Made by a program: the position numbers and the translations under genes. Positions 18,913 through 38,798 of a stretch of DNA of 64,000 nucleotides are shown piece after piece. The stretch is from Reinekea sp. Its GTDB lineage: Bacteria > Pseudomonadota > Gammaproteobacteria > Pseudomonadales > Natronospirillaceae. The notes under the pieces were generated by a model that was given only the letters and a program-made list of their open reading frames with translations, searched no databases and was not told the origin of the DNA. How positions within the stretch are numbered: the first letter of the stretch is position 1; the number at the start of each line of letters is the position of its first letter. Where the stretch lies: contig JARRJP010000013.1 of the NCBI GenBank assembly GCA_037389025.1, positions 54,305-118,304 of the forward strand. The letters run 5' to 3'.

Positions 18913-18997
18913 CTCCATAGCGGCACAGTGCGCAAGCCATTGATTCCTCTTTGCTTCCCAAAAATTTCAATGAACCTATGGGTGCACCTGCAATTTT
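18900..18997 (-). repeat. Family-A repeat, truncated (left half only)
   Basis: Matches the first ~98 bp of the 8735/45107-type copies and then diverges. It contains the stop codons of both convergent neighbours. Confidence 0.85.
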
Positions 18998-19393: not shown

Positions 19394-19553
19394 CCTGAAT
19401 CCGTGATTCCAGAGTGAAGTCGGGGAGTAAGAGCTTGATTTCTATTTGTTCTTCAAAAGTTGCAGGAGCACCCGTAGGTTCACCGTAATTTTTGGGAAGC
19501 AAAGAGGAATCAATGGCTTGCGCACTGCACCGCTATGAAGTCACAGATTCAGG
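19394..19553 (+). repeat. Family-A MITE-like repeat, full copy (left edge of the AT-rich island)
   Basis: TIRs CCTGAATCCGTGATTCC...GAAGTCACAGATTCAGG. Flanks differ (ACTAC vs TTACA), so no clean target duplication. Confidence 0.9.
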
Positions 19554-19956
19554 TTACATTTTCAAGAGTTCTTGAATATAAGATCACTTGCATGTGCCTT
19601 GAGAAAACCTAGATTAAGAATAACGTTTTCAGATAGATTTAAATATTTCTTCAGTGACCAGCCCTTTCAAGGTGGTATATCAGCACGTTACCGGCAATAT
19701 AGGCAATTTTAGCTACATTTAAAGGGAATGGTCGAAATTGCAACAAAAAATTTCGGATTTAGCGAGTACTTTTCTTAAACTCGATTAGCTTTAGAGCCGC
19801 CAAAACACTGCTCTTTAAGGATTTCTCTAACTTTAGAGCTGGTTATTTTTTCACCTTGAAAGGGCTGCTAAAGTCATCGAATGTCTGCCCTTTTTATTTA
19901 TCAATCAGTGAAATAAAATCACCTTTTGGTGCATCAGGTAAAGGCCGAGTATATCG

Positions 19957-23348: not shown

Positions 23349-23351
23349 TCT

Positions 23352-23963
23352 CTACGCTATCAAGGGTTTTATCGCAGTTAGTACCTGATCTTTCGTTGAT
23401 GACAGATCGCCCGAATTATCGATAACCCGATACTTGATTTGAAATTTTCCGAACACATGGAGATAAGATTCACCAAACATCCTCATGAGTTCGATATCTT
23501 CATCGTCACCACAAGACTGCCTGTCTAGATACCGTTTTTCCAAGTTTGATATGCCAGCATCGATATATAAGGTCAGGTCAGGTTGAATAAATTTAGAAAG
23601 CAGGTCCTTTAAAGGTGTAACATCTTCAAAAATATCAATATAGGCGAGATAACAAGGCAGAAATCGGTCAAAGACAACATAATCGTAATTCTCCATGGCC
23701 TTAACATTCTGATCATAGCAACGAATAAAATCCAATAGTATCCCTAACCCTATGTTTTTCCCGAAGGCACTTTCTTTCCAGTCTCGCGAATCGCCGTACT
23801 TTCTTGGAAAGTATTTCTTTACTAAATTTAGGTTTCCATCTTCATATTTTGTACGTCTAAAGAAGAAGACGTTTTTCAGTATATTTGACTCTTCCAACAT
23901 GTTTACTATGGTGGATTTTCCACTTCCGTCTACACCACATATCGCAATCGATTTCATTCCCAA
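23352..23963 (-). CDS. dTMP-kinase-like P-loop kinase, paralogue 1
   Basis: Walker A ICGVDGSGKST. FPRKYGDSRDW and FDRF motifs are shared with 23967-24596 and 26474-27073. Confidence 0.7.
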   Translation of the reverse strand: MGMKSIAICGVDGSGKSTIVNMLEESNILKNVFFFRRTKYEDGNLNLVKKYFPRKYGDSRDWKESAFGKNIGLGILLDFIRCYDQNVKAMENYDYVVFDRFLPCYLAYIDIFEDVTPLKDLLSKFIQPDLTLYIDAGISNLEKRYLDRQSCGDDEDIELMRMFGESYLHVFGKFQIKYRVIDNSGDLSSTKDQVLTAIKPLIA

Positions 23964-23966
23964 AAC

Positions 23967-24596
23967 CTAAAGATAACTGGCAATTATTGATTTAACTTGA
24001 TTTAGCGTCTGCTCAAACGAACCATCATTACTCACGCTTTCCACGTCTAAATCAGAATTCTCGAAGAGATTGACATATGCCGCCAATAATTTCTTCTGGC
24101 ACTCTTTGGTTTCAAATTCATGAATGTCATCGGAACTGCTATCCATACGTTGCCGAATTAGCTCTTCTTTCAGAGTGATAAAAATCACCTTCTCTGGGGC
24201 CGGAACGGAATCTAAAATTTGTAGGGAAATATTGCTTGGCTGCTCATTAATTAGCGTAAAAGCCTTAAAACAAGGCGTATGCCTGTCTGTTACAACGAGC
24301 TTATATTGAGTCGAACTTCCTTCTAATACGGGTCTAATTACCTGATTGTAATAGTTTACATAATCTATCGCACAGCTAATTGCTATAGCCTGATTGAATT
24401 CCCCGCTATACCAATCTTCAATGCCATTTTTTCTAGGAAAGCATTTTTCCACTGTAGATTCTGCTATAGCAGGTCCTCGACCAACAAAATACACCTTCCC
24501 TTTCAACTCGGGTTCAGTTTCAAGTTTTTTAAAAATTGAGGTTTTTCCCACGCCGTCAATACCGCATAGGGAAATAACTGGAATTATTTTTTTCAT
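23967..24596 (-). CDS. dTMP-kinase-like P-loop kinase, paralogue 2
   Basis: Walker A LCGIDGVGKTS, then FPRKNGIEDW and TDRH. Confidence 0.7.
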   Translation of the reverse strand: MKKIIPVISLCGIDGVGKTSIFKKLETEPELKGKVYFVGRGPAIAESTVEKCFPRKNGIEDWYSGEFNQAIAISCAIDYVNYYNQVIRPVLEGSSTQYKLVVTDRHTPCFKAFTLINEQPSNISLQILDSVPAPEKVIFITLKEELIRQRMDSSSDDIHEFETKECQKKLLAAYVNLFENSDLDVESVSNDGSFEQTLNQVKSIIASYL

Positions 24597-25339
24597 TAAC
24601 TAGACACCATTAACTTAGCTGCTTCTTGATAATTAAATAGCCCATCAGACAATTCAACCACTGCGCCATTAAGAGCGTAGTTTGGTGACATTATCTGTTG
24701 GTAAATAGGCTCCACAACATTTTCCACTGCAAGCGGCCTTTCAATAACAAGTTGGCTACATAATTCATTTATGTATTCTTGTCCTTTATCAAATAGACCT
24801 ATACTGAAAACGCAAACACTTCTTCCAGAACCTGAAATCTCCATTGCTGCTGATCGAACAAAATTGCAGAGAGCGGTCGCGGTAGCGTTGTATAAACCGT
24901 TATATTTTACCGCCCCTTTTTCTCCCGCCAGACCAGTAATATTGATAAACTGCCAATTCTTCTTATGCTTTTTTAAATAACTAAAATAGCTGGCCATTGC
25001 TTCCACGGGAGCACGAAACCCCACCCGGGTGACGTTTTCTATTTCTTCTTGTGATATTTCATATACTGAAGAGTGGTTCCACATTCCACAACAGTAAAGC
25101 ACGGTGATATTTTCGTAATTATCTACTTCATCACGAATGACATCGCCTGCAACTACACTTTTGGCAGCTAAATCCATTGAGATTAATTTGATAACGAATT
25201 CTTCTTTGTTGAGACTATCTATATATTGGTTTTTATTTCTATAAACACCAATAATATTCACTTTTCCGCTCTCACCTAGTCTCTTAGAAATACTAAAACC
25301 GAGAAAAGAAGATATGCCATAGATAACAACCAGATTCAC
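24596..25339 (-). CDS. Short-chain dehydrogenase/reductase-like Rossmann protein
   Basis: VVIYGISSFLGFSISKRL glycine-rich dinucleotide motif. I prefer GTG 25339, just after the GT stop at 25341. The ORF-track ATG 25381 would overlap the GT gene by 41 nt. Confidence 0.55.
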   Translation of the reverse strand: MNLVVIYGISSFLGFSISKRLGESGKVNIIGVYRNKNQYIDSLNKEEFVIKLISMDLAAKSVVAGDVIRDEVDNYENITVLYCCGMWNHSSVYEISQEEIENVTRVGFRAPVEAMASYFSYLKKHKKNWQFINITGLAGEKGAVKYNGLYNATATALCNFVRSAAMEISGSGRSVCVFSIGLFDKGQEYINELCSQLVIERPLAVENVVEPIYQQIMSPNYALNGAVVELSDGLFNYQEAAKLMVSS

Positions 25340-25340
25340 T

Positions 25341-26471
25341 CTACATACACTCCAGTATTTTACGAATGGAATTCTCAGCATTTTCGAAACCGAGGTTCGG
25401 CTTTAGTTCTGTTTCTTCGGGATCAAGTTTACTTGCGCTTGTTATACACAAATCTAAGTCTTCGATAAACGAACAAAAATATGCATTTTCTGTTGACTCA
25501 GCAAATTCGGAGGCAATCAAGAATTGCTCGTCGTGTCCAGAGAGAGCCCATACGACCTTTCCTCCGGCTATATTTTTCACATCAGAAAGAAAACCAACAC
25601 CAGCACGAGATACAACCAATTTGGCCTCAGATAGGTATCTGTAGTACTCGAGAGATATTGAATCCACTACGAGCCGATCAATACCTGAAATCTTCTGTAA
25701 GGAGTTGTTTAACTCTTCCCCGAGGCATGAAAATACCTTTACGTGGCTACGTTTATCAAAACAGTTAAGTGCACTCTCTATAGCCTTGTGGGTATAGTCA
25801 TACGTTTCCGAAATCCATTGAGCGGCATCTACTTCCTCTGAACTATATGAAGCGGTATTTGAGGGGAACTCAACGCCGCCACCGTTCGCAATAACAACAA
25901 TATTGTCTTCGGTCTGAGCACCACAACTAGGTAGAGTATAAAAACCATGGCTCACAATCTTGCTAGAAATATTACTATTACTAATTAACGTTTTTTTCTC
26001 CGGCAGTTTATCCAAGGGTAGAAGGTAGTCACTCTCTCCTAGTAGACTCACCAGATAAGTAGAAGGCCCTTTATTTTTTGGCGTATCAATAAGTATTTCA
26101 GGGTTGAATAAGCCTACAGCTTTACAGCTGGTTCCCTTAGTAAGCGGCCCCATTAAATACTCACCACCAAAAAAACAAAGGTCTGCATTAATACTCTCTA
26201 TTAGCGGAAGTATATTTCGTACACCGTGATCGTAGGGGCATAAGCCCGGCCAATCCAAATACTCCTTACGCACATCCAGCTGATGCAGCTTGTATTCAAT
26301 ATCAATAGGGCCACGACCGGAAAGGAATTCATAACCGTTTGAATAGCTTGCGATATGCACTTCAAGCCCTTGATCATAAGCTGCTTTCGCCAGCGCTAAA
26401 CCCGGTATAACATGGCCCAACCCTGGCCGCCCCCTCAATACAAACAGAGCTACCTTCTTATTTAAATTCAT
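25341..26471 (-). CDS. GT-B fold glycosyltransferase (MurG/GT1/GT28-like)
   Basis: N-terminal GRPGLGHVIPGLALAKA and C-terminal VVSRAGVGFLSD...GHDEQFLIASEF resemble MurG/UGT-type donor-binding motifs. Confidence 0.65.
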   Translation of the reverse strand: MNLNKKVALFVLRGRPGLGHVIPGLALAKAAYDQGLEVHIASYSNGYEFLSGRGPIDIEYKLHQLDVRKEYLDWPGLCPYDHGVRNILPLIESINADLCFFGGEYLMGPLTKGTSCKAVGLFNPEILIDTPKNKGPSTYLVSLLGESDYLLPLDKLPEKKTLISNSNISSKIVSHGFYTLPSCGAQTEDNIVVIANGGGVEFPSNTASYSSEEVDAAQWISETYDYTHKAIESALNCFDKRSHVKVFSCLGEELNNSLQKISGIDRLVVDSISLEYYRYLSEAKLVVSRAGVGFLSDVKNIAGGKVVWALSGHDEQFLIASEFAESTENAYFCSFIEDLDLCITSASKLDPEETELKPNLGFENAENSIRKILECM

Positions 26472-26473
26472 GG

Positions 26474-27073
26474 TTATAGCGCTTCCAGAATATGTTCTAC
26501 AATTTCTGAGACGGAGTGCTCCAGCTCTTGAGTATTGTCTACCGTCACTACATCGGACATGTCAGAAAATAGACCATCATAGCTATCAGAAAGCTTTCGT
26601 ATTACATCTGGCGTTTCATCGTTACTCGGCCCTCCTCTAAGATGTTGCCTTTCTATAGCAACTTCGGGAGGTACTTTTATGTAAAAGGTTTTGTCCGGCG
26701 TCCTTACATTGTCAAACATCGAGAAATAGTCTTTATCTGTATTCACAGCTGACATGTACGACGTGTAACAATAACTATACCTATCACATATAACGATGGT
26801 ATTCTCCTTCATTAGAGGCTGAATGTATTTGTCATAGTGAGATATAAAATCCATACCCGTAGCAATAGAGACTAGCTGCGCAAATTTACCCCCACTCCAG
26901 TCCTGATCTCCACCCCAAAAATCGCAAATAAGGTTTACGTTGGTTTTAATATCCTTTTTCAGAGCAGTAGAATAATGCCCAATCTCCTGCAGGCGTTTGG
27001 ATACCAAATCTACCAAAGTAGATTTACCACAACCATCTACGCCACATAACACAAATAATTTTGATGAACTCAT
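26474..27073 (-). CDS. dTMP-kinase-like P-loop kinase, paralogue 3
   Basis: Walker A LCGVDGCGKST, then GGDQDW and CDRY. Confidence 0.7.
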   Translation of the reverse strand: MSSSKLFVLCGVDGCGKSTLVDLVSKRLQEIGHYSTALKKDIKTNVNLICDFWGGDQDWSGGKFAQLVSIATGMDFISHYDKYIQPLMKENTIVICDRYSYCYTSYMSAVNTDKDYFSMFDNVRTPDKTFYIKVPPEVAIERQHLRGGPSNDETPDVIRKLSDSYDGLFSDMSDVVTVDNTQELEHSVSEIVEHILEAL

Positions 27074-27085
27074 AGTTCTAATTCT

Positions 27086-27757
27086 CTATACAACGCGATA
27101 ACTTTCTAAAAGAGTCAATAGGTTATCGATATCTGACCGAGTAACTTCTCTGGTATTTTTTAAACTCTCAGGAGTTCTTTCCTTTGAGCCATAGCGCCAC
27201 CAGGTTTCTTTTGTTCCAAAATCGTAATGGATCGCTCTCTGTTTCTGAGCCGGTGAGCGCAACATTAAGGATATACACTTATCCTCTCCTACCGCTCTCA
27301 AGTTGTGGATAACAGAGTGGTCAATAAAGTAAGGGATATTCTTTACTTCATTTTTTATGTACACAGGTTTAATTTGGTCTGCGTCATGTAGAATCGAGCC
27401 GTCATCCATTGGGCTATACAAAGTATGTTTGTAGCCACCGTGCAGTATCAGACTTGTAAAGTTCATTCTGTGGCTGTGTGGAATATCACTGGAATGTGGA
27501 TACATCACATGCATACGCAGTCTCACGCCAGTTTCTTTGTCACTGAAGAGAACATATTTTTCGATATTATAGTCTTTCTCGCAGCGTCCAAATTTTTCTT
27601 CATCTTCATAGAGATCAGTTACCAATGATTTAAGTAGCTCCTTATCTTCACTCAAGTTCATCAGCGCATTTTTTGTGACGACTTCCACCGACTCGGTATC
27701 TTTCCAATCTAACGCCAAGACCGGCCCCAAGATGTCGTTTAGCTTTTCAATATTCAT
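27086..27757 (-). CDS. Hypothetical protein, possible cupin-fold metalloenzyme
   Basis: MHVMYPHSSDIPHSHRMNFTSLILHGGY...VIHNL is a His-rich beta-strand pattern reminiscent of cupin or cysteine-dioxygenase-like proteins. The assignment is weak. Confidence 0.35.
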   Translation of the reverse strand: MNIEKLNDILGPVLALDWKDTESVEVVTKNALMNLSEDKELLKSLVTDLYEDEEKFGRCEKDYNIEKYVLFSDKETGVRLRMHVMYPHSSDIPHSHRMNFTSLILHGGYKHTLYSPMDDGSILHDADQIKPVYIKNEVKNIPYFIDHSVIHNLRAVGEDKCISLMLRSPAQKQRAIHYDFGTKETWWRYGSKERTPESLKNTREVTRSDIDNLLTLLESYRVV

Positions 27758-27759
27758 AT

Positions 27760-28362
27760 CTATACCTTCCTAATGATAGCTTTTAACCATTTATCTTCCT
27801 TCCGGTGCGCTCGAGTGTCGATGGAAACCCAAAGTTCAACAATTTGAACACCAGGAATGTCATTTATAAACTGTTTGAACCTTTCCTCATTCATGTGAAC
27901 AAACAATCGGCCACTTTTTTCACTTATTTTGTCTTCGCTTCCATATTTATAAGAAGCGTAAAACACTCCGTCATTCTCCAAGTATGAAATAAGCTGTTTG
28001 TAAACAGATGCAAGATCTGCATAAGGAACATGCAACAGAGAGGCGCTCGCCCATATACCATCAAACTTTTGATTTCCGGGGTCATATGTATCAAACCTTT
28101 TATGCTTTACATCTACACCTGTTCGCTCTCTAGCTATGGAACACATCTCGAACGATGCATCAAAAGCATCGACGTCAAAACCTTTGGAAAGAAAAAAGTC
28201 GATGTCTCTCCCCGGCCCGCATCCTGCTTCTAAAATGGCACCACTATTTGCAATATATTTAGTGAACCTTTCCCGAGCATCGTCTACATTTTCTTCCAAA
28301 CTTCTCGATGTGAACTTGTTTGCATTCTCGTCGTAGTACTTAATTGTGTGCTCAACTAACAT
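27760..28362 (-). CDS. Class I SAM-dependent methyltransferase
   Basis: Motif I ILEAGCGPGRD, with post-I acidic residue FDVDAFDAS. 200 aa. Confidence 0.8.
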   Translation of the reverse strand: MLVEHTIKYYDENANKFTSRSLEENVDDARERFTKYIANSGAILEAGCGPGRDIDFFLSKGFDVDAFDASFEMCSIARERTGVDVKHKRFDTYDPGNQKFDGIWASASLLHVPYADLASVYKQLISYLENDGVFYASYKYGSEDKISEKSGRLFVHMNEERFKQFINDIPGVQIVELWVSIDTRAHRKEDKWLKAIIRKV

Positions 28363-28376
28363 TGCTAGCTTCCAAT

Positions 28377-29642
28377 CTAATATTTAAAAAATGGGGAATC
28401 GGCCTCTGCAAAAGGTATTAGCTCATCAAACCAGCTTGCGCTACCCGAATATTTTGATTTAAAAGGTATCTTCACTCTTGTCGAATCCCTATGCTGAATA
28501 AACTGCATTAGAAAATTCCCATTCTCGCCTGGCTCATAGTGGAGGATTTCAACCTTCCCATACTTTGTGCTCATTACCGGCCCACGAACGGTACGAGCCA
28601 GTCCGCTTGTCACCCGAATAGATTTATGAAAGATATTATATGCTTCCCAAAGCGGGACAGAGAAACAATTATTCGCTCCGGTGTCTCGTTCAACGAACAT
28701 ATAGTATGGAACAATCCCTCGATGTACCTGCGCTCTCCATAAGTTCGCCCAATTATCAGGGTTGTCATTTATGCCCTTTAATAAAGGCCCTTGGCTTCTT
28801 ATTACCGCTCCGGTGGACTGAATTGCGGCAATAGCTCTATCGGATATCTCGGTACTCATTTCTTTGGGGTGATTGTAGTGCGCCATAAAAGCCAAATGCT
28901 TACCCGAAATGGTCACCTTCCTAAACAGATTTAGAAGATCATCAGAATCAGAGTCTGTTACAAATCTTTGCGGCCAGAATGTAAGGGCTTTAGACCCGAT
29001 TCGAATATTTTCCACATGTAAAAAGTCTTTACCCAATAACGGCTCAATCATCTTTCTCAAATTACTGGTTTTCATAACCATGGGGTCACCACCGGTAATC
29101 AAGATGTCCGTTATATTTCGGTTAGCTCTTACATACTCCAGCAAGTCGGTAATTTCCTTCGACTCCATCCTCAACGGTTTATCACCAATAAATTGGGCCC
29201 ACCGAAAACAGAAAGTACAGTAGCTATGGCAAACCTGACCCGATGAAGGAAAGTAAAGAACGGTTCTTTCATATTTATGTTGCAAACCAGAAACCGGTAT
29301 TCCCCCCACTTCTGGTATATTCATTTTTAGCTGATCACCAGGGTGAGGGTTCAGCTCAGAACGTATTTCTTCTACTATTGGTCTAATGGACTCTCTTCCT
29401 AACGCTAACCCTTTCTTGATTTTCTCGTACTGCTCATTTGTGAGCATGCTTTTATTTGGAATAGTTAACCTGTATATAGGGTCATCTCTATAATTATCCC
29501 AATCAATCAATGAGTCGCAGACATACTCGTTAACACGAAAGGGCAGCACTTCAGAAACCACCTTTATTTCTTCCAGTGCTCTTTTTCCAATTTTCTTTGC
29601 TGAGTGTTCTGATGTTGTTATTATATTGCTACTTATAGACAT
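28377..29642 (-). CDS. KamA-family radical SAM enzyme (lysine 2,3-aminomutase-like)
   Basis: CHSYCTFCFRW CxxxCxxC cluster, ILITGGDPMVM, and a length and layout typical of KamA/EpmB/AblA-type PLP-dependent aminomutases. Confidence 0.8.
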   Translation of the reverse strand: MSISSNIITTSEHSAKKIGKRALEEIKVVSEVLPFRVNEYVCDSLIDWDNYRDDPIYRLTIPNKSMLTNEQYEKIKKGLALGRESIRPIVEEIRSELNPHPGDQLKMNIPEVGGIPVSGLQHKYERTVLYFPSSGQVCHSYCTFCFRWAQFIGDKPLRMESKEITDLLEYVRANRNITDILITGGDPMVMKTSNLRKMIEPLLGKDFLHVENIRIGSKALTFWPQRFVTDSDSDDLLNLFRKVTISGKHLAFMAHYNHPKEMSTEISDRAIAAIQSTGAVIRSQGPLLKGINDNPDNWANLWRAQVHRGIVPYYMFVERDTGANNCFSVPLWEAYNIFHKSIRVTSGLARTVRGPVMSTKYGKVEILHYEPGENGNFLMQFIQHRDSTRVKIPFKSKYSGSASWFDELIPFAEADSPFFKY

Positions 29643-29663
29643 GTATTTTCCGTAAATTCCCTA

Positions 29664-30650
29664 TCAAACAAGTTCATTTAGGGCTTGCTCGCACTGACGA
29701 TAATTGAATCTCGCATATTGTTTGTCTGCGCCAAAGGTTTCGCCACCTACCACCTTAAATTCTATGCCTTGGATACCTAACTTGCCGTTTTGGATTCTTT
29801 CGCCAGCTTTAAGCCACATATATTGAACAAGCAATCCAGTAACTTCATAACCCTCACCTGCAATTAGCCCGCTCACCGTGTCGAGTACTTTTTTAGATTT
29901 TTCCTTCTCGGCTTTGGCCCATTTGGAGAAATTATTCATATTCTCTGCCGCTGTAACTTGAGCAACTGAAGATACGGGGTTAAGAAATCTGCATTTAATC
30001 TCTACTAAGTTATCTATCAGAGACTTACAGGCATTTATAAACCCAACTCTTAACCCAGGCATTCCGGCCCATTTTGAAAGTGAATCAACAACTGCAACAT
30101 GGGTATCATCCACCTGCGCGGAAAACCGTTCACAGTCTCCAAAGGAATAATGAGCAAGACACTCATCAATTATCAACATACACCCGTTTTCTTTCGTCAC
30201 CGCTACTATTTTTTTCATCTCAGCACAGGAAAAGAAAAAACCTGTTGGGTTATGAGGGTTATTTACTATTAGTACCGAACATCGCTTAGAAGCGTCTTCT
30301 ATAGAACGAATGCTGGTATAAGAATACCGCTTAATATCGTAATCAAGGCCTCCAAATATCTTTGCGAACCCCGGCCAGGCGATATCTGATATAGCTACGC
30401 TTTTTTCTTTTCGTTGAAAAAATAGGGCAAGCAGCATCAGACCTTCTTTTACTCCGCTGGTGACCAACACATTATCAGTAGTTATATGGTTCGCATATTG
30501 GCTCTCAACGTAACGCGCTCTTAACTCATGCAACCCAAATTCGCAGGTGTAGTCTGCCACCGTAGAAATTTTAACTTGCGTCTTCATGAGCGCATCTGAA
30601 TATAAACCACCTCCAGCGTCCGCCAACACTGCTTTTTTCACGAGATCCAC
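29664..30650 (-). CDS. Class I/II PLP-dependent aminotransferase or decarboxylase (HisC/CobD-sized)
   Basis: VNNPHNPTG and DSLSKWAGMPGLRVGF (PLP lysine). 328 aa. Confidence 0.8.
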   Translation of the reverse strand: MDLVKKAVLADAGGGLYSDALMKTQVKISTVADYTCEFGLHELRARYVESQYANHITTDNVLVTSGVKEGLMLLALFFQRKEKSVAISDIAWPGFAKIFGGLDYDIKRYSYTSIRSIEDASKRCSVLIVNNPHNPTGFFFSCAEMKKIVAVTKENGCMLIIDECLAHYSFGDCERFSAQVDDTHVAVVDSLSKWAGMPGLRVGFINACKSLIDNLVEIKCRFLNPVSSVAQVTAAENMNNFSKWAKAEKEKSKKVLDTVSGLIAGEGYEVTGLLVQYMWLKAGERIQNGKLGIQGIEFKVVGGETFGADKQYARFNYRQCEQALNELV

Positions 30651-31678
30651 AGCCGAGTTGGTTCAGTTCCCTCAACATACACCTTGCTTCGATAGGTATA
30701 TTCCATATACTCATAGCTCTCCACATCAATATTCTTTAAATCATACCGGTTAGCTAATAACTCAATAGATTTGATATTATTTGGTGTAACGCTATATTTA
30801 TCTAGAATACTGATGGATAAATTATAAATTTGGTCACAAAAATCCAGACAATCTAGAACATACCTTTCTTTGTCTGAACTCTTCTCCATTTGATAACCAA
30901 TAAAATATATTAGCTTGAAGAAGTCACCGGAGAGCGAAGAGATATCCTGTTTTTTACTTTCTTGTAAATATGTATACATCCATTTTGGATCTACATTAGT
31001 ACAGCCATTTATATGCAAATACGCTTGCACTTGTCTCTTTAAGTTAATTTGAGATATTTCAACAGCACGATCGCGTTCCCCCTTTGATATAGCGCCAAAG
31101 ATGTCCAACAATATTGAAAAATCTGATGCCAACCAACGATAGGCAAGATAGCAGTACTTTTCTTTGGAGAATTGCGCCTGAATCTCTTTAAGCTTTCTTT
31201 CGTTTTTAATAGGAAGTGCTTCAAATATCCTATGTATAATGCTGTTTTCTCTATATTCTAGATACTTTGACAGCATTTCCAAATTACTAGTAGCGTACTC
31301 AAATAGACTCTCAACTTTATTGGCTACTTCCGCTATCGACCGGTAGCTTTTAAATTCAACATCAACTTTAATATTGGTTTCAGGTATTACCGTGTGAACC
31401 AAAAATACTTCTTCGTTCTCCACTTCCGAGATGTTGGTTGAGGTAACTATGGTTCTATTAACAGTTAACACTCTGTGGTGTTTTTCAAAATCGATTTCTT
31501 TTGCTTTAGGTAAGTTTTCTCTAAACACATAGATGTCTAGATCAGAGAATTTGTTACCTATACCTTCAATCAAGCTACTTGTGGCAATTATCAGGTCATC
31601 ATCACCAGCATAAGCATTATCCAGAATAAACTGAACTGGAACATTTACTTTACCATCTAATATTTTTATTGATTTCAT
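30638..31678 (-). CDS. Pol-beta superfamily nucleotidyltransferase with a helical C-terminal domain (paralogue of 22536-23348)
   Basis: SSLIEGIGNKFSDLDIYVF NTase motif, then VDVEFKSYRSIAEVANKVESL. 13-nt overlap with the downstream gene. Confidence 0.75.
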   Translation of the reverse strand: MKSIKILDGKVNVPVQFILDNAYAGDDDLIIATSSLIEGIGNKFSDLDIYVFRENLPKAKEIDFEKHHRVLTVNRTIVTSTNISEVENEEVFLVHTVIPETNIKVDVEFKSYRSIAEVANKVESLFEYATSNLEMLSKYLEYRENSIIHRIFEALPIKNERKLKEIQAQFSKEKYCYLAYRWLASDFSILLDIFGAISKGERDRAVEISQINLKRQVQAYLHINGCTNVDPKWMYTYLQESKKQDISSLSGDFFKLIYFIGYQMEKSSDKERYVLDCLDFCDQIYNLSISILDKYSVTPNNIKSIELLANRYDLKNIDVESYEYMEYTYRSKVYVEGTEPTRLWIS

Positions 31679-31693
31679 CTTTAGTACACATTT

Positions 31694-33058
31694 TTACACT
31701 ATGGTAGGTATTCTGGCTTCGGGTTTATACAATAGATTTTCAGCAGTCTTAATCGTCTTAACAATTCTCTCTGCCATAATGTTGAGTTCTTCTATGGTGC
31801 ATATGTAAGGTGGAGCAATTAATATGTGGTCACTCGTACCTTTCCCACTAAATCCCTCGCAGGCATAGAGTAGAATCTCGTTTTCCATTCCGATATTCTT
31901 AATAACATCAGGCATATTTATATTTTTCGAAAATGGTGTCTTATCAGACTTATTTGATACAAACTCAATAGATTGAAGAAATCCACGCCCCCTTATATCT
32001 CCCACTATCCCGCAAGAATTTAACTCCTCTTTCAATATCGAAGTTAGATACGCGCCGTTATTTTTTACCCTGCTTACCAAATCATTTTCTAGCACGTATT
32101 TCTGAGCAGCATAGCCAGCAGCACAAGACACGTTATGACCAACGTATGTACCAGCATGAATAAAACCAGATTTCATTTGTTCTATGCACACCGCAACTCG
32201 TTGACTACACAGCGTGGCCGCTAACGGCTGATACCCAGAGGCAATCGTTTTACCAACCGCAACAATGTCTGGCTGGATATTCTCAGCCTCGAATGCATAA
32301 TAATGTCCAGTTCTACCCAGGCCACACATAACCTCATCGAGAACCAATAGGATGTTGTATTTCTTGCATACTTTCGCGGTTTTCTCAAAGTAATCCTTTT
32401 CTGCCGTTACAGCTCCAGAAGTCGATCCGCCTACGGTTTCTATCAGGAAGCAGGAGATTTTCTCTGCACCAAGACGTTCTATCTCTTTTTCTAAGCTATT
32501 AATACAGTAGTCTATGTATTCGGTAGTGGTTTCAAAGGTGTCAACATTTCGATATGAGTTGCAAATTTTTATATTTTCGGAATGCCCGCTTTTTTTATCG
32601 CAAAAATATTTCTTTCTACTAAGCTGGCCACCTACTTCTAATGTTTTCAGAGAACCACCGTGATAGCTTAACTCTCGACACAGAACGATTTCTTTCTTGC
32701 CAAATCCGTTAAGTTTCCAATACTGGGCGGCCATTTTAATGGCCACTTCGATTGCCTCAGTACCTGATGGAGAAAAAACTACTCGAGAAAGCCTTCCCTT
32801 GGACTGTGTTACCAACAAGTCTGCTAGCTTTTCAGAAGCTTCCGAAGTAAAAGTTCCGGTGTGCGAAAATGGAACTTCTTTCAGCTGATTTATTGTCGCT
32901 TCGATAACAGCTTCATTGCTATAACCTAGAGATGCCACAGCTCCTGAGCAGCTATCCAAAAACCGACGGCCAGAACGATCGTTAACATATATACCACTAC
33001 TAGCAGCACAGAGGATTTTTTCAAAAGAACCCCTTTTAAGAATACTCGAGCCCATCAC
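31694..33058 (-). CDS. Class III PLP-dependent aminotransferase
   Basis: LVLDEVMCGLGRTGHYYAFE, DIVAVGKTIASG (PLP lysine) and SYHGGS. 454 aa. Confidence 0.85.
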   Translation of the reverse strand: MMGSSILKRGSFEKILCAASSGIYVNDRSGRRFLDSCSGAVASLGYSNEAVIEATINQLKEVPFSHTGTFTSEASEKLADLLVTQSKGRLSRVVFSPSGTEAIEVAIKMAAQYWKLNGFGKKEIVLCRELSYHGGSLKTLEVGGQLSRKKYFCDKKSGHSENIKICNSYRNVDTFETTTEYIDYCINSLEKEIERLGAEKISCFLIETVGGSTSGAVTAEKDYFEKTAKVCKKYNILLVLDEVMCGLGRTGHYYAFEAENIQPDIVAVGKTIASGYQPLAATLCSQRVAVCIEQMKSGFIHAGTYVGHNVSCAAGYAAQKYVLENDLVSRVKNNGAYLTSILKEELNSCGIVGDIRGRGFLQSIEFVSNKSDKTPFSKNINMPDVIKNIGMENEILLYACEGFSGKGTSDHILIAPPYICTIEELNIMAERIVKTIKTAENLLYKPEARIPTIV

Positions 33059-33069
33059 GCTTTCCTTAA

Positions 33070-33870
33070 CTAGAACCTTTCATAGTGGCGTTTTTCACAC
33101 ATTTTTTTGAATGTGTTTCTGACCAAATCACTTGCTTTGTTCACTTCGTAGTACCATTCAGGATGCCACTGCACAGCAATAACATCTCCCAGCTCAGGGT
33201 TAAGAGAAAAGGCTTCTACCACACCATCTTTACTAATGGCTTCAACTCTCAAACCAGAACCTAACTTATTGACTGCCTGTCTATGTAGGGAATTCACATC
33301 CAGTACTCTTTCAGTTTTATTCTTCTTGCTGTATTCCTGCGCAAGAATTCCGCCCTCTTGCAGGACTACTTTATGGGAATCTATGTATTTTTCTTCAAAA
33401 ACACCTGTGATGTGTACTCTGTGAGTTTCTATCTGCTCGTCCGTTGGAAGCTTTTGATACAAGGTCCCACCTAAAGCGACATTTATCTCCTGCATCCCAC
33501 GACATATTCCCATTAATGGAATTTTTTCCTCAATACACGCCAAGACCAAAGGCAAAGTGGTACTGTCTCTATCAAGGTCAATTCGGCTGAAATCAATATT
33601 TCCTTTCTCATCAAGAACTATATTTTCCTCGCCGTACTTTTTGGGCTCCACATTGGAGGGACTCCCCGTGAGAAGTACGCCATCCAACCTTTTGACAACT
33701 TCTCTTAATGTGCTGGCACGGGTTTGAGTATCTTTATACCTCCTCCCCATACAAGGAATCATAAGAGGGCTATACCCCAGACCTTTAACAATATAGTCCA
33801 GGTACTTATCAAATACTGAATGGTGGGGCGCATCCAATATTTCCACACAGCTAGATACTCCAATAATCAT
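33070..33870 (-). CDS. Peptidase C26 / gamma-glutamyl-GABA hydrolase (PuuD)-like class I glutamine amidotransferase
   Basis: Nucleophile elbow GICRGMQEINVALGGTL and the His region VQWHPEW. Confidence 0.8.
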   Translation of the reverse strand: MIIGVSSCVEILDAPHHSVFDKYLDYIVKGLGYSPLMIPCMGRRYKDTQTRASTLREVVKRLDGVLLTGSPSNVEPKKYGEENIVLDEKGNIDFSRIDLDRDSTTLPLVLACIEEKIPLMGICRGMQEINVALGGTLYQKLPTDEQIETHRVHITGVFEEKYIDSHKVVLQEGGILAQEYSKKNKTERVLDVNSLHRQAVNKLGSGLRVEAISKDGVVEAFSLNPELGDVIAVQWHPEWYYEVNKASDLVRNTFKKMCEKRHYERF

Positions 33871-33875
33871 AATTT

Positions 33876-34265
33876 TTACTCTATATTTTCAGCTTCACCT
33901 GGGTATTGGCCAAGCTCTCGTAGTTTTACGTAGTGAGGGATATCTTTAGTCGCGCGCTCAAACTCAGTATGACTAACACCAGGCATAGACAAACTTTTGG
34001 TGACACGCCCAGGAAATCTTCGCTTGTAATCTTCACGAAAGGCTTCCCAATCTGACAGTTCATTTACGGAGAAAACTCCCATCCAATCCCACTCGCCTGC
34101 CATGTTCATTGTGTGTGACCCGATGGTTTGCTTAACTTTCGGATACCAATCCTTAAAGAAGTTGTTAATTGCTTCTTGGCTCTTTGCTTCTTCTTCGGGC
34201 GTTTGTGCATAAAAAGCATCGTTATGTTTTACTAAATGAAAAATGAGGTACTTATAAGGCGCCAT
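33876..34265 (-). CDS. Hypothetical 129-aa protein, possibly a dimeric alpha+beta barrel (darcynin/Dabb-like) fold
   Basis: YLIFHLVKHND...WDWMGVFSVNELSDWEAFREDYKRRFPGR. This is only a pattern resemblance. Confidence 0.3.
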   Translation of the reverse strand: MAPYKYLIFHLVKHNDAFYAQTPEEEAKSQEAINNFFKDWYPKVKQTIGSHTMNMAGEWDWMGVFSVNELSDWEAFREDYKRRFPGRVTKSLSMPGVSHTEFERATKDIPHYVKLRELGQYPGEAENIE

Positions 34266-34277
34266 ATTTTTTACTTC

Positions 34278-35424
34278 CTATTGATTAGACAAGATTTGAA
34301 TAAGATTTCTGTATATTTCATTTTGAGCATTCAAGCTAAGATCAAATGCAGGACAAATGTGCGCATACTTTCTAACGCTATGCTTATCCCCACTTTTCTT
34401 CATTACAGATGTCCCTATATATGCCCACATATCGAAGCCCGTTAAATCAGACGCGAACTTAGCGGCCTGCTCTGAATTCATATCCAGGCGAATAGAGGTT
34501 GGGGTTACACTTATGCCAATTTTCAATAACTGCGGAAAATTCTGTCAGACCATGCGTGAATGTAAGTGGAGCTATCCCGGAAGACTGAACGGCCTCTGTA
34601 ATATCAGAAGATAAAAGAGTGCAGCTCAAGGGATGTAAACCGGAAGTCAACCCTTTGGATACAATTGAAACATCTGGTAATACCTGTTCTTCTTTTACAC
34701 CGCATGAAAGAAAAACACCATGCCTAAATGCACCTGATGCGACATCGTCTAGCACAACCAAAATTTCATGATTCCGGCAATAGGAAATAATGTCTCTTAA
34801 AACTTTACCGTCACTGTTAAACTTCCACCCTGTTGTTGGCTTTCCTTCAAGCAATAGCAATGCGGGGTAATGAATCCGCTTGCTTTCAACTAACTCTTTT
34901 AAATGATCAATAAATGTTGATCTATCTAAATTTTCATTACAGGCTAGGTATTCTTCCGATGGACATTCGTCAATGACAATCACACGCTTGTCTTTGGAAC
35001 CACCGGAAGCACGAGCCGATAGATTTCGACATAAATCTGTATTTCCATGATAACTACCTTTTCTTACAATAAAGCTTTGAATCTCTTTACCATATTTATA
35101 ATTACAGTAAACATTAGCTGCCCAGATACCAGATTCAATGGCATCAGAACCACTACTTGACCACAACATGTCTTTATATTTTTTGTTACATTGAGCAATG
35201 ACACTTTTCTGCAATTTTCTCTTCTGTTCTGACTCAAAACCAGCAGACGGAGCAATATGATTTAATACAGATTTTGAAAGCTCACAAAGCGTCTCAACAT
35301 TTGAAAAGTTTTGGGTTAATGACCCACCACTAATATCAACAAGAAACTTGCCATTCCCAAGGGAAAAATTAGAACCAATTTTTTCTTTGATATTGAGGAT
35401 ACTTTTATTCAAGTGACGTATCAT
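34278..35424 (-). pseudogene. Class III aminotransferase split by a frameshift near 34515-34530 (ORFs 34459-35424 and 34278-34526)
   Basis: The upstream ORF has LVVLDDVASGAFRHG and SIVSKGLTSG (PLP lysine). The downstream frame continues with the expected C-terminal ...HICPAFDLSLNAQNEIYRNLIQIL. The frames overlap around TTGAAAATTGG. Confidence 0.6.
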
Positions 35425-36056
35425 CAGGTACCAACCTGCAATTCTTCATCTTCTAAAAGAACCGCTTTCGTAATATCCACAATAGACACGATTGGTATAT
35501 CTAGATTTCTAGAGATACTTTCTAGTTCGGATTTTCGAGCAATAGAACCAGCAGAATTTAATATTTCACAAATCACACCAGCCCCCCCGATCCCAGCTAA
35601 ATCAAGTAAGTCTACGATCGCTTCAGTATGCCCATCTCTTACTTTCAGGCCACCTGGCTTAGCTAATAGAGTTGGAATATGACCAGGAGTACAGAATAAT
35701 TCAGGGGTGCTATCGATATCACTTAACGCCTGTATTGTCTCACTACGATCTTCTGCAGAAATACCTGAAGAACCATTGGCAAGGGAAACAGGACAACCAA
35801 AAGGAGTATCATGCACATCCTTATTATTGCTACGTAAACGTGTAATTTCAAACTTTTCTGCAAACTCACTTGGCAAAGAAACACACAAAAATCCCTTTGC
35901 AAAAGTCAACGCAAAATTCACCAATGCTGGAGTAGCATATTTTCCACTAAAAGCAAGGTCACCTTCACCCTCTCTATCATCTCGATCACGAATTATTATC
36001 GGTTTACCAGAAACCAAATAATCGATAGCCTTGTCTACTGATTTTGAATATTTCAT
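35424..36056 (-). CDS. ribB: RibB-family 3,4-dihydroxy-2-butanone-4-phosphate synthase-like enzyme
   Basis: DRDDREGEGDLAF, GISAEDR, TPGHIPTL, DGHTEA and GVICEI align with E. coli RibB catalytic motifs recalled from memory. Confidence 0.85.
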   Translation of the reverse strand: MKYSKSVDKAIDYLVSGKPIIIRDRDDREGEGDLAFSGKYATPALVNFALTFAKGFLCVSLPSEFAEKFEITRLRSNNKDVHDTPFGCPVSLANGSSGISAEDRSETIQALSDIDSTPELFCTPGHIPTLLAKPGGLKVRDGHTEAIVDLLDLAGIGGAGVICEILNSAGSIARKSELESISRNLDIPIVSIVDITKAVLLEDEELQVGT

Positions 36057-36086
36057 AATGTGTCCACACGCTAGATCATACTAGTT

Positions 36087-36317
36087 TTAGGTAACAATTA
36101 ATGCTGGAGAAAAAGTTGAATGCTGATCTTCGGGAATGCCAATTGAAGAGCCAGCCTCAGGCGCAATTGCTACTATTGCGATAGTATTCGGAACCTTATC
36201 TTTTTTTATTCTTAAGTTATTACAAATAATATTTTTTTGATTTTCGGTTAACTCAATTGTAGTTGTAGTTGCCATATTAATATCCGATTGCAGTTGTTTA
36301 TTTGTAAAAATAGCCAT
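36087..36317 (-). CDS. Small leader ORF of the island operon (62-94 aa depending on start); candidate precursor or scaffold peptide
   Basis: Open frame 36087-36371 with ATGs at 36335, 36317 and 36275. From 36275 it reads MATTTTIELTENQKNIICNNLRIKKDKVPNTIAIVAIAPEAGSSIGIPEDQHSTFSPALIVT. Ends 30 nt upstream of the ribB-like gene. No known family. Confidence 0.4.
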   Translation of the reverse strand: MAIFTNKQLQSDINMATTTTIELTENQKNIICNNLRIKKDKVPNTIAIVAIAPEAGSSIGIPEDQHSTFSPALIVT

Positions 36318-36359
36318 AACACTCGGCTGCGTCATCTTCCCGGTTGCCTGAGCTCTCTC

Positions 36360-36880
36360 TGCTGTCGGCAAAGGTTTTTTTCATGCGGCGATACAGTGTG
36401 AGCGTTTCCGCACTAATAACCACGCCTGGGTGCTTCTTCCAGTTATAATAGGTCGACTTTCATGACTTGACAAAGTGTCACAACTGGATAGTGCTCAGAC
36501 TCTCCTTTAACGAATTCAAACTTTACTTCATTTATTTCGCAAAGAAGGCACTGGTCTTTTTTAAAATATCTTTCTCCATGCACAATTCTTTATTTTCTTT
36601 ATGGAGGCGCTTGAGTTCTTCGTGTTCATCTTCGACTAAGGCAACACCTTCACGCTGAGCTTAAATTTTTCTTTTCATTTATAGAGTAAGAATCGTGCAA
36701 TGCTCAACGAATTCGCGGCTTGGGTAACGGAATAACCTTGCTATAATGCTAAAGCTTCAGCCTCTTCTTTAAATTCTTTCGTATATTGCTTGTGAGTTCG
36801 TTTCTGACTCATACTGACACCGTAACTGATTGGCGGTTATTGTCTCTCAATTAAGTGTCCGGTGCCATTAGACCACTACA
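36360..36880 (-). mobile_element. IS3-family element, 5' fragment (IRL plus degenerate orfA and start of orfB), truncated
   Basis: The minus strand from 36880 reads TGTAGTGGTCTAATGGCACC..., then MSQKRTHKQYTKEFKEEAEALAL*, several more stops, an A-rich slippery region and ...YNWKKHPGVVISAETLTLYRR. Confidence 0.7.
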
Positions 36881-36896
36881 GACTTAATTTAATAGA

Positions 36897-37319
36897 TCAT
36901 GAAATTTCTTTTTTTACATGAGCCCATTTTTTTGGCGTATAACCATACCAGCGTTTAAATGATTCTATAAATGCACTTGAGCTTCTAAAAAACAAAAATT
37001 TAGACACCTGATCAACAGTACAACCTTCAAAGGATAGCAAAAATAACGCATACGGCTTTCTAATCTCATCTTTAACCCCTAAATATGTCATTTTTCGATC
37101 TCTCAATCTTCTATATAAAGTTCTTTCACTAACACATAGAGATGAGCAAACCCCATGCAAATCAAAAGGATTTTTACTATTACTATTAATCTTTTTAATA
37201 ATAACTAGAAAAACGCTTCTCAAAAAATCATCTTTACAATACTTAATGTTGATATGATTGATAATTTTCCTAATTGACTTTTTTGAAACTTTTTCCATTT
37301 TCATTTCCATTGAAGGCAA
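36897..37319 (-). CDS. AraC/XylS-family HTH regulator (DNA-binding domain only, 140 aa)
   Basis: LCVSERTLYRRLRD...TVDQVSKFLFFRSSSAFIESFKRWYGYTPKKW is the double-HTH AraC C-terminal signature. Confidence 0.75.
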   Translation of the reverse strand: MPSMEMKMEKVSKKSIRKIINHINIKYCKDDFLRSVFLVIIKKINSNSKNPFDLHGVCSSLCVSERTLYRRLRDRKMTYLGVKDEIRKPYALFLLSFEGCTVDQVSKFLFFRSSSAFIESFKRWYGYTPKKWAHVKKEIS

Positions 37320-37574
37320 GGATTATAAAAATTCAATAGGCTCTACTATCTTAAAAAGATATAAAAATACGAATAAGCAAGAATTATCATTTTTCATGTT
37401 TATTTATAAAAATTCAACAATAAAAATATCGATTATCTGCCAATAGCACCTTAGTGATAAGCAAATCACACCCATTAAAAAAGAGATCTTAGAATCTTGG
37501 CAATTTCCACGATATTTTAACGTCATTAATTATCCGAATTGTTATGGTAAGTATCAATAAAATCTCAGTATGAG

Positions 37575-37834
37575 ATGAGCTGGATCGGTTGAAATCCGAG
37601 TTCAATCGATTATCTTTTGAAGGTAAAGTCTCTTGGGAAATTCGATTGCTCATGCAAAGCATGCTGGCTCTATTGGATATCATCTGTGCCATTTTTCTGG
37701 AAAGGAACACGACCAAAACTCCAGTCAATTCCAACAAGCCGTCCTCTCAAAACGGAAAATATGAAACGACTCTGCCACACAAAGGCAGTAAAGGAAAAGG
37801 GAAGTATGAAGCGACTCTGTCGGCCAACAATACC
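37575..37834 (+). mobile_element. Transposase N-terminal fragment (IS66/IS1182-like), truncated by IS3 insertion
   Basis: Coiled-coil DELDRLKSEFNRL... followed by KTPVNSNKPSSQNGK, which resembles the NS.NSSKPPS motif of these transposases. It ends abruptly at the IS3 end at 37835. Confidence 0.35.
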
Positions 37835-38330
37835 TGTGACCTGGTCAAGCATTACTGACCAGTCCAGTTAAGCAGCCTTTGCCATTATTTCATTATCTGT
37901 TTTAAACTGTATTGGACTTTTGTAGCCCAAGTAGGAATGAAGTCTTTTGCTGTTGTAATGCATGACAATATAATTCAGAACATCTGCTTGCGCTTCTGCT
38001 CGTGTTTGGTAATGACACCACTGAACTTGCTCTTGCTTTAACGTGCCAAAAACAATTTCGCTTACTGCGCTGTTCCAACAATTTCCTTTGTGGCTCATGC
38101 TACCAACAAAGTGATGATCCTCCAGTAGTTTTCGATACTCACTCGCTCGTGTACTGATAGCCACGATCCGAATAGATCAATCAGCCCAGCTTTTGACTGT
38201 CTTTGCCATCTTTAACGCATCACACACTAATGCTGCTGTCATTCGACTACTCGTGCTCCAACCGACCACTCGGCGTGAGTACAAATTTATGATCACCGTA
38301 AGATAGAGCCAGCCTTCTTGCGTCGTAACT
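37835..38330 (-). mobile_element. IS3-family element, 3' fragment (orfB integrase core, frameshifted and 5'-truncated)
   Basis: [39 protein letters not shown]..(frameshift)..YSDRG and ORF 37868-38164 with SMSHKGNCWNSAVSEIVFGTLKQE...YNSKRLHSYLGYKSPIQF (rve DDE domain). Confidence 0.8.
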
Positions 38331-38798
38331 ACTCACCCCAAAAGCCACAATTTCCCCCGCCAACACCATCTGTCTCGCAATCAACGGATTCACTCCCTTA
38401 CTTGCCATACTCTGCAAATAACTAGTGTCTGTCCGGAAGCGTCTAATCCATTGAATTTAAAAAATAAATTGACCAATTCCAAATAAAACGGCCTTGTGGT
38501 TTTGTAAAATTGCTTTCGCCAAAAAAGAATCCAACCAAACCCAAGGCTTGGCCATGCGGAAAAACCACACAGCTCAAACCAGTATATTCGATTCCTACTG
38601 CGACCCAGAAACCGGAACTGCGAACACCAAACGGAAACAAGTCACTGATCCAGCAAATATTTAAACACAGAATATTGGTGATTCAACAGCAAGATGATTT
38701 GGTTGCTGCTGTATGCGGCACAGCAAAACACCTGATTGATCGACTCAACCTGGCAACAACGCTAATATCCAACCAAACCCAGACGACAGTAATCTTTT

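Follow-up and report, generated by a model that had tools for sequence, protein, structure and literature searches.

The stretch of DNA examined here (the window, 64,000 nucleotides of Reinekea sp. contig JARRJP010000013.1) carries an island of low GC content (approximately 38%, compared to approximately 49% in its flanks), on which about twenty genes run in the same direction on the minus strand, from position 36275 down to 20337. The run is headed by a small gene for a protein of 62 amino acids, the stop of which ends at 36087, leaving a gap of 30 nt to the ATG of a RibB-like gene at 36056. In the initial annotation of this DNA, the open reading frame (ORF) was described as the first of the island operon, 30 nt ahead of a ribB-like gene, and was proposed to encode a precursor or scaffold peptide. 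The ORF coordinates and the Pfam match of the neighbouring gene agree with the first of these statements. The second is supported as a candidate role by conservation of the ORF and of its C-terminal tail, and by the constant company of a nucleotidyltransferase and a PqqD-like domain. The features of the operon and of its 5’ end are as follows.

approximately 36300-36700, minus strand: remnants of an IS3-family transposase (C-terminus of OrfA and N-terminus of OrfB, containing stops), directly adjoining the 5’ end of the operon
36276-36371, minus strand: upstream part of the maximal ORF, non-coding for the small protein; it reads IS3 OrfB debris and holds a weak Shine-Dalgarno-like GGA at 36284-36286
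36087-36275, minus strand: small protein, 62 amino acids and stop, MATTTTIELTENQKNIICNNLRIKKDKVPNTIAIVAIAPEAGSSIGIPEDQHSTFSPALIVT (MATTT…FSPALIVT)
35424-36056, minus strand: RibB-like 3,4-dihydroxy-2-butanone-4-phosphate synthase (Pfam DHBP_synthase, E = 2e-55)
34278-35424, minus strand: first class-III aminotransferase, disrupted by a frameshift, with about 27 residues missing
24596-34265, minus strand: mid-operon genes for a 129-aa protein, a Peptidase_C26/GATase protein, class-III and class-I/II aminotransferases, a KamA-like radical S-adenosylmethionine (SAM) enzyme, a methyltransferase, a 223-aa protein, a GT-B-like 376-aa protein and a short-chain dehydrogenase/reductase (SDR); p346 and TMK1 also sit within this range
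30638-31678, minus strand: p346, a second nucleotidyltransferase, paralogue of NT270 with the same catalytic motifs
26474-27073, minus strand: TMK1, a thymidylate (dTMP)-kinase-like P-loop kinase, the best window match of the cassette kinases described below
23967-24596, minus strand: TMK2, a dTMP-kinase-like P-loop kinase, 34% identical to the kinase that precedes the small gene on contig L022 (see below)
23352-23963, minus strand: TMK3, a dTMP-kinase-like P-loop kinase
22536-23348, minus strand: NT270, a Pol-beta-type nucleotidyltransferase (GSLVEGIGNDSSDIDVY … DVE), orthologue of the compact-cassette enzyme
21880-22539, minus strand: p219, with an N-terminal PqqD-like domain of the RRE type (RRE, recognition element of RiPPs, peptides made by the ribosome and modified after translation) at residues of approximately 14-91, fused to a C-terminal extension of approximately 125 aa
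21077-21865, minus strand: metallophosphoesterase, near the operon end
20337-21068, minus strand: PdxJ-like pyridoxine-5’-phosphate synthase at the operon end (NCBIfam, 282 bits)

The maximal stop-to-stop ORF containing the small gene spans 36087-36371 on the minus strand, and three possible starts had been listed within it, namely ATG 36275 (62 aa) and the ATGs at 36317 and 36335 (76 and 82 aa). A homologue search of 5.8 billion proteins returned seven relatives with 69-82% identity across all 62 residues of the small protein. For five of these the annotated length is exactly 62 aa, with MATTT at the start; the other two are longer and possess unrelated N-terminal extensions. Since nearly all of the homologues begin with MATTT at 62 aa and the upstream ATGs fall in IS3 debris, ATG 36275 is, on this comparison, the true start of the small protein. 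The 76- and 82-aa versions were rejected as artefacts of the IS remnant, as they read through IS3 OrfB debris and their extension is absent from the homologues. The ribosome-binding site of the window copy, previously described as weak, consists only of cGGAtattaatATG (GGA), compared to the Shine-Dalgarno sequences GAGG, AGGAG or GGAGG found 6-9 nt ahead of the MATTT ATG in the homologues.

Five codon alignments of the small gene gave values of 0.58-0.89 for synonymous differences per site (pS), at which synonymous sites are saturated, compared to 0.11-0.20 for nonsynonymous differences per site (pN). For residues 32-62, pN was only 0.03-0.15. Judged by this pattern of substitution, the small gene is a real protein-coding gene under purifying selection. 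It is present as a single copy, and its product contains no Tyr. No family match for the peptide was found in Pfam, NCBIfam, PADLOC or PDB sequences, in keeping with the initial annotation, in which no family had been recognised; the sole PDB sequence match, a TetR fragment (E = 1.5), was rejected as chance. Collections of E. coli and plasmid sequences matched neither the region nor the peptide.

Profile searches, first of 1.84 billion representatives and then of an indexed database, widened the family to approximately 37 proteins of 61-75 aa. All of the named members are called ‘hypothetical protein’, and the family as a whole has no match in Pfam, NCBIfam or PDB. Two subfamilies can be told apart. 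Subfamily A (RibB-type, including the window) has the form MATTT…FSPALI[VI]T, with a length of 62 aa and Thr as last residue in 12 of 12 aligned members; an additional profile match of 61 aa (P0014) likewise ends in Thr. Subfamily B (cassette-type) has a short N-terminal extension and the tail F[SA]PA[LIM]xx, with Met as last residue in 17 of 25. The terminal residue thus tracks cluster type, being Thr in RibB-type and mostly Met in cassette-type members. Residues L9, Q13, P29, G46, F55 and P57 are invariant across the family, and T/S10 has the appearance of a helix cap. The last eight residues (F-S-P-A-L-x-x-x) form the most conserved segment, with a mean majority frequency of 0.78 family-wide (0.96 within subfamily A) compared to approximately 0.5 elsewhere. 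Conservation of the C-terminal residues, which had been suggested as a check on the proposal, was therefore found to be highest exactly there.

An AlphaFold2 (AF2) model of the small protein, made with a 37-sequence alignment, had a mean predicted local distance difference test score (pLDDT) of 82.9. Two strands and two helices are predicted (β1 2-8, α1 11-21, β2 31-37, α2 39-44), with pLDDT values of 85-96 over residues 1-45. In the tail (residues 46-62) pLDDT drops from 65 to 49 with no secondary structure. An earlier model from eight sequences had hinted at a third strand. Foldseek searches against PDB with the two AF2 models gave best E values of approximately 0.4-1, with no known fold and no ribbon-helix-helix (RHH) protein among the matches. 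As modelled, a folded N-terminal domain that runs out into a flexible, conserved tail fits the expectation for a scaffold or carrier peptide and not that for a regulator. The leader-plus-core layout proposed in the initial annotation holds insofar as the protein is bipartite with a conserved tail of low pLDDT, but its N-terminal half is modelled as folding into a small domain and not as a floppy leader.

The small gene was found to lie first, directly before the RibB-like gene, in five of five RibB-type clusters with a visible 5’ end. Besides the window these are Saccharospirillum salsuginis (L001/L009), a Sedimenticola metagenome-assembled genome (L002) and the metagenomic lineages L003-L006 and L007-L008. 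The ORF is thus intact at the head of homologous operons, a second check that had been suggested, and no RibB-type operon lacking the small gene was found among those with a visible 5’ end. Downstream gene order is collinear among the RibB-type clusters. The KamA-like gene is missing from the Saccharospirillum cluster (L009) and is therefore dispensable.

Other observations were made on these relatives. No gene product of the cluster is more conserved than the 129-aa protein (33876-34265, minus strand), which belongs to no Pfam or NCBIfam family and has 84-100% identity across lineages compared to 35-97% for the others. Its gene adjoins KamA-like or PdxJ-like genes in the rearranged distant loci L013 and L014. 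Scans of GTDB genomes and JGI metagenomes with this protein returned only Saccharospirillum and three short rearranged contigs, which do not carry the small gene but do not exclude it either. Compared to L003 (2896-5420), window positions 33876-36275 are a mosaic: the small protein, the RibB-like protein and the first aminotransferase are 81%, 82% and 70% identical, respectively, and the genes after the first aminotransferase are all 90-100% identical, with an identical 129-aa protein. This suggests, from sequence identity, recombination near the 5’ end of the cluster. On L007 (1455-5631), the small gene is closely preceded, in its own direction, by genes for an ATP-binding cassette transporter with a C39 peptidase, an HlyD-type adaptor and a GerE regulator, a typical set for peptide export that is absent from the window.

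Subfamily B is represented by six compact cassettes, from Sorangium sp. So ce726, Burkholderia stagnalis, Duganella sp. BJB1802 and three metagenome contigs. In these the small gene is followed by a gene for a protein of approximately 280 aa and one for a protein of 80-95 aa (often overlapping the prior gene), and then by genes for a B12-binding radical SAM enzyme and a dTMP-kinase-like kinase. The protein of approximately 280 aa (L016) is 31.6% identical to NT270 (E = 1e-36). The signature of Pol-beta nucleotidyltransferases, GS…DxD…DxE, is invariant in ten sequences including the window paralogue p346 (catalytic-motif residues S35, D46, D48, D82 and E84). Across independent contexts (Sorangium, Burkholderia, Duganella, metagenomes and the window), the small gene was found together with the nucleotidyltransferase and the PqqD-like domain in eight of eight. 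One to three dTMP-kinase-like genes are also present in all eight except L021, in the cassette of which no kinase was detected; L016, the shortest cassette contig, ends inside the kinase gene. In the window, this partner module sits together at 21880-24596, with the genes of NT270 and p219 overlapping by 4 nt.

On its own, p219 has only sub-threshold matches to PqqD (Pfam E = 0.019; NCBIfam E = 0.02-0.04). PF05402 (PqqD) was the best Pfam match for five of the six cassette proteins of 80-95 aa, one of them above the cut-off (27.9 bits compared to 23.4), and the top match for six of seven when all partner proteins are counted. A profile of these proteins searched against PDB gave PqqD structures as top matches (best 3g2b, E = 0.009). 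Aligned with hhalign, the same profile matched residues 14-91 of p219 with a probability of 96.8% (E = 2.4e-10). The PqqD-like domain of p219, which had been named in the initial annotation, is confirmed because the orthologous proteins of 80-95 aa both match PqqD and align to p219. A first reading of p219 as lacking the status of a conserved partner, taken from a word-indexed search, was dropped, as that search cannot reach the cassette orthologues, which have diverged too far (18-29% identity). The link drawn in the annotation between the small ORF and the PqqD-like domain of its operon thus stood, with the difference that the constant partners (the nucleotidyltransferase, PqqD-like and dTMP-kinase-like module) lie at the opposite end of the operon, and the RibB-like neighbour is not among them.

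An intermediate member (52% identity) was identified on L022 (3-3749), where two dTMP-kinase-like genes come first and the small gene, with a strong Shine-Dalgarno sequence, closes the operon. The leader position noted for the window therefore applies to most operons but is not universal. A convergent gene of L022 encodes a 381-aa protein matching Pfam DUF6001 (31.7 bits), which may tentatively be described as a nucleotidyltransferase fused to a PqqD-like C-terminus (Pfam E = 0.045, with negligible hhalign support). At a further locus, on Bacillus sp. ZJS3 plasmid NZ_CP094456.1 (L025, 4926-8921), a homologous nucleotidyltransferase gene is immediately followed by genes for a ‘PqqD family protein’, a CPBP protease, a CYTH protein and a major facilitator superfamily transporter. 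Since this locus holds the enzyme pair and no member of the small-protein family, the pair of nucleotidyltransferase and PqqD protein serves other peptide families too, as a wider peptide-pathway module.

The closest NCBIfam relative of the cassette B12-binding radical SAM enzyme is the RiPP enzyme ApyD. In PADLOC, this enzyme (L017, 11305-12750) matches PDC-M51A (E = 4e-11), and the dTMP-kinase-like proteins of the window (23352-24596 and 26474-27073) match the candidate defence models PDC-M51B and VakA (E = 1e-9 to 1e-11). As to an anti-phage defence role, these matches to the candidate system PDC-M51 probably reflect similarity at the domain level only. An AlkZ-like gene (PF06224) adjoins all five long subfamily-B cassettes in either orientation, with the encoded proteins being 32-41% identical to each other; none was found in the window.

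L017, 13390-14439: AlkZ-like gene
L018, 13528-14691: AlkZ-like gene
L019, 13424-14596: AlkZ-like gene
L020, 13148-14356: AlkZ-like gene
L021, 13669-14832: AlkZ-like gene

The AlkZ-like family of DNA glycosylases confers self-resistance to genotoxins. Because AlkZ-like genes adjoin the cassettes, the cassette product could, by analogy, target DNA.

The IS3 debris noted in the initial annotation at the 5’ end of the operon was recovered as remnants of OrfA and OrfB that reach to approximately 36300, and the native 5’ region of the operon is replaced by this debris in the window copy. A promoter-like sequence (TTGTCA-17-TATTAT, 36473-36445, minus strand) lies inside the remnants, though counts in the upstream promoter and terminator scan were no higher than in shuffled sequence. 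The small gene itself is intact. The 419-aa L003 orthologue of the first class-III aminotransferase aligns to the window in two frames, with approximately 27 residues lost between the pieces, and the window gene is probably a pseudogene on this alignment. The KamA-like gene (28377-29642, minus strand) has a 21-aa in-frame deletion near its N-terminus compared to the otherwise near-identical L012 gene (2835-4163), with its CxxxCxxC motif intact. Because of the weak ribosome-binding site, the IS3 remnant at the start and the disrupted first aminotransferase, this copy of the cluster may be decaying.

The right edge of the island (36300-38700) is a patch of decayed mobile-element and regulator fragments, among them a 140-aa AraC-type C-terminal fragment (36897-37319) and a transposase C-terminus remnant (37868-38164). 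Core genes (threonine aldolase, EamA) start again at 38799. At the left edge, a 101-nt inverted repeat (18897-18997 and 19456-19556, 90% complementary, 458 nt apart) flanks a 4HBT-thioesterase gene.

PqqD-like domains are documented to hold precursor peptides for modifying enzymes in the pathways of pyrroloquinoline quinone (PQQ), mycofactocin, lasso peptides and daptides. From the conservation, synteny, recognition domain and two-part architecture set out above, and from a precedent, we lean, if only slightly, towards the small gene product being a ribosomal substrate, that is, the precursor or scaffold peptide of an RRE-nucleotidyltransferase-kinase module. The nearest model is the late assembly of fosfazinomycin, reconstituted in vitro on the 22-aa scaffold peptide FzmZ (Cha et al., bioRxiv 2026, PMC13622209). 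In that pathway two kinases (FzmF/FzmK) turn a phosphonate into a triphosphate-like surrogate of a nucleoside triphosphate (NTP), the nucleotidyl transferase FzmU, encoded beside the discrete RRE FzmT, ligates the surrogate to the modified C-terminus of the peptide, and housekeeping peptidases release the product (PMC13622209).

In the system described here, the PqqD-like domain of p219 would bind the peptide by its folded N-terminal domain (β-strand TTTTIEL and helix, residues 1-45), presenting the flexible conserved tail (…G-x-P-x6-F-S-P-A-L-I-V-T) to NT270. The dTMP-kinase-like enzymes would further phosphorylate a nucleotide or a phospho-metabolite, giving a di- or triphosphate donor that RRE-guided NT270 would transfer onto the tail in the manner of FzmF/FzmK/FzmU on FzmZ. 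Making or tailoring the phospho-metabolite or the C-terminal Thr would fall to the RibB-like, PdxJ-like, aminotransferase, methyltransferase and SDR enzymes, and the product could be released by the Peptidase_C26 protein, the phosphoesterase or a housekeeping peptidase. The mechanism as a whole is one that we infer.

A number of findings weigh against a role as substrate peptide. A dedicated leader protease or exporter was not found among the 20 cluster genes of the window, although a missing protease is not strictly defining since the fosfazinomycin cluster also lacks one. The fosfazinomycin RRE was dispensable in vitro (PMC13622209). The word-indexed homologue search with the 219-aa p219 returned only p219 itself and no orthologue in other RibB-type clusters, for which the sequence covered stops short of the 3’ ends, and the pairing of the small gene with a PqqD-like domain within the RibB-type subfamily is known from this window alone. 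With its weak Shine-Dalgarno sequence, upstream IS remnant and broken aminotransferase, the window copy is perhaps not expressed. No invariant residue across the family has a side-chain nucleophile, so that attachment might be at the C-terminal carboxylate, at the backbone or at a C-H position. Moreover, residues 1-45 are predicted to fold alone, which would also fit a small non-substrate subunit.

Such a subunit would be a non-modified accessory or regulatory protein (an adaptor, inhibitor or assembly factor of the nucleotidyltransferase/kinase complex) that binds through its C-terminal hydrophobic motif. The autonomous β-α-β-α domain predicted by AF2 (pLDDT 85-96), the single-copy gene, the lack of an invariant nucleophilic side chain and that of a protease or exporter all accord with this. 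However, it would not account for the constant pairing with a PqqD-like domain, for the strongest conservation falling in a segment predicted to be unstructured, or for a terminal residue that co-varies with the enzyme set, and we consider it a possibility of the minor kind. A classical RiPP, in which the conserved tail itself is the product and the nucleotidyltransferase and kinases act as tailoring or activation steps, is unlikely in our view. In RibB-type members daptide-like oxidative decarboxylation, transamination and methylation could act on the C-terminal Thr, which is last in 12 of 12, and the window cluster encodes two class-III aminotransferases, an SDR and a methyltransferase. The C-terminal Thr of daptides is processed by an oxidative decarboxylase, an aminotransferase and a methyltransferase together with an RRE-fusion accessory protein (Ren et al. 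2023, doi 10.1101/2023.03.08.531785). In the cassettes the tail could be C-methylated by the B12-binding radical SAM enzyme, the relative of ApyD. Yet twenty genes, including RibB, PdxJ, three aminotransferases, three nucleotide-type kinases and a phosphoesterase, far exceed what tailoring of a tail needs, no protease or exporter lies in the cluster, and the tail is not hydrophobic-helical like daptide cores.

The N-terminal β-strand followed by an LTxxQ helix in the AF2 model, and the first position in most operons, could recall an RHH-like regulator or antitoxin with a Thr-rich ribbon contacting DNA. Neither an RHH match nor any other family match exists in Pfam/NCBIfam, nor a sequence or fold match in PDB; the second element is a β-strand and not helix B, the conserved hydrophobic C-terminal tail is left unexplained and the small gene comes last in L022, making this explanation very improbable. 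The weak ribosome-binding site of the window copy and the location directly upstream of the ribB-like gene might lastly be taken as signs of a spurious ORF or of a cis-regulatory leader (attenuator or riboswitch type). Rfam and tRNA scans of the window found nothing, and without an Rfam match a riboswitch or attenuator is unsupported. This explanation is refuted by the selection pattern (pN far below a saturated pS) together with conservation of the protein in clusters without ribB, and we give it practically no weight.

Should the small protein be a scaffold or precursor peptide as favoured above, the unannotated family of 61-75 aa would provide a genome-mining handle for natural-product pathways missed by current RiPP tools. 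If it is not, the gene is still a conserved small protein without an assigned role, a common situation. The island, with its RibB-like, PdxJ-like and three aminotransferase genes, is linked to no known product, and the small peptide offers an experimental entry point to it. A bolder proposal, to which we give little credence at present, is an undescribed peptide-templated biosynthesis: the kinases would turn a vitamin-precursor-like phospho-metabolite, made by the RibB, PdxJ and aminotransferase enzymes, into an NTP surrogate that the RRE-guided nucleotidyltransferase ligates to the tail of the 62-aa scaffold, giving a masked antimetabolite (for example an analogue of the B6 or riboflavin pathway). 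The B12-radical-SAM cassettes beside AlkZ-like genes (Sorangium, Burkholderia, Duganella) would then be a minimal form of the same chemistry. Literature searches (tail motif, DUF6001, RibB/PdxJ with a scaffold peptide, thymidylate kinase with RiPP) returned nothing on the small-protein family. The family and its tie to the nucleotidyltransferase-RRE-kinase module are in neither Pfam nor NCBIfam nor the literature covered by these searches, with the general logic being already known.

Among known systems, PQQ (PqqA/PqqD/PqqE) and mycofactocin (MftA/MftB/MftC) are pathways in which a peptide-derived small molecule is the end product. In common with the present system, they have a small precursor whose C-terminal motif is strongly conserved, a chaperone of the PqqD family and, as in the compact cassettes, a radical SAM enzyme. 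The tail here is FSPALIVT, in contrast to the E-x3-Y of PqqA and the C-terminal GVY of MftA, and the radical SAM enzymes are KamA-like (window) or B12-binding (cassettes) and not of the SPASM type. Equivalents of PqqB/C or MftD/E/F do not occur here, and the nucleotidyltransferase and dTMP-kinase-like partners have no counterpart there. LysW-type amino-group carriers (lysine and arginine biosynthesis of Thermus/Sulfolobus) are proteins of approximately 55-60 aa in which a small domain is folded and the C-terminal tail is flexible and conserved. The size and layout of the small protein are similar, and the kinase, aminotransferase and hydrolase of the cluster could work on a tethered intermediate. 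However, the small protein is without zinc-ribbon cysteines and the acidic EDWGE tail, the cluster has no ATP-grasp LysX, and no similarity of sequence or fold to LysW was detected.

The likeness to daptides comprises the invariant C-terminal Thr (in the RibB-type subfamily only, as cassette-type members end otherwise), a class-III aminotransferase, a methyltransferase and an SDR (matched at the family level only), and an accessory protein, without other annotation, to which a recognition domain is fused, N-terminally here and C-terminally in daptides. Dissimilarities are that the peptide is not a hydrophobic helical core and that the cluster adds RibB, PdxJ, nucleotidyltransferases and kinases. 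For the lasso peptides paeninodin and pseudomycoidin, a PqqD-like protein, a kinase and a nucleotidyltransferase-fold enzyme likewise act on the C-terminal residue of the peptide (PMC6993621). The peptide families are unrelated, a lasso cyclase and leader peptidase are absent here, and the kinases are HPr-kinase-like there and dTMP-kinase-like here (PMC6993621).

The closest precedent, by analogy, is fosfazinomycin. It differs in that FzmZ is shorter than the 62-aa peptide described here, which has a predicted folded N-terminal domain and lacks the N-terminal YxxP that is a feature of the Fzm system. The recognition domain here is fused to a 125-aa extension. The Asn-synthetase-like FzmA and PepM/phosphonate genes are also without equivalents, with no Pfam match to Asn_synthase or PEP-mutase found in the cluster. 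Kinases are present in both, being dTMP-kinase-like here, whereas FzmF is an ATP-grasp enzyme, and neither cluster encodes a dedicated protease. Both have a short ribosomal peptide within a large ‘small-molecule’ cluster, the gene of which was long overlooked, and in both (here in the window and all cassettes) a discrete recognition protein of the PF05402 type is encoded right beside the nucleotidyltransferase. If the small protein is indeed such a scaffold, the RRE, nucleotidyltransferase and kinase logic of fosfazinomycin would extend to unrelated Proteobacteria and Myxococcota with different kinases.

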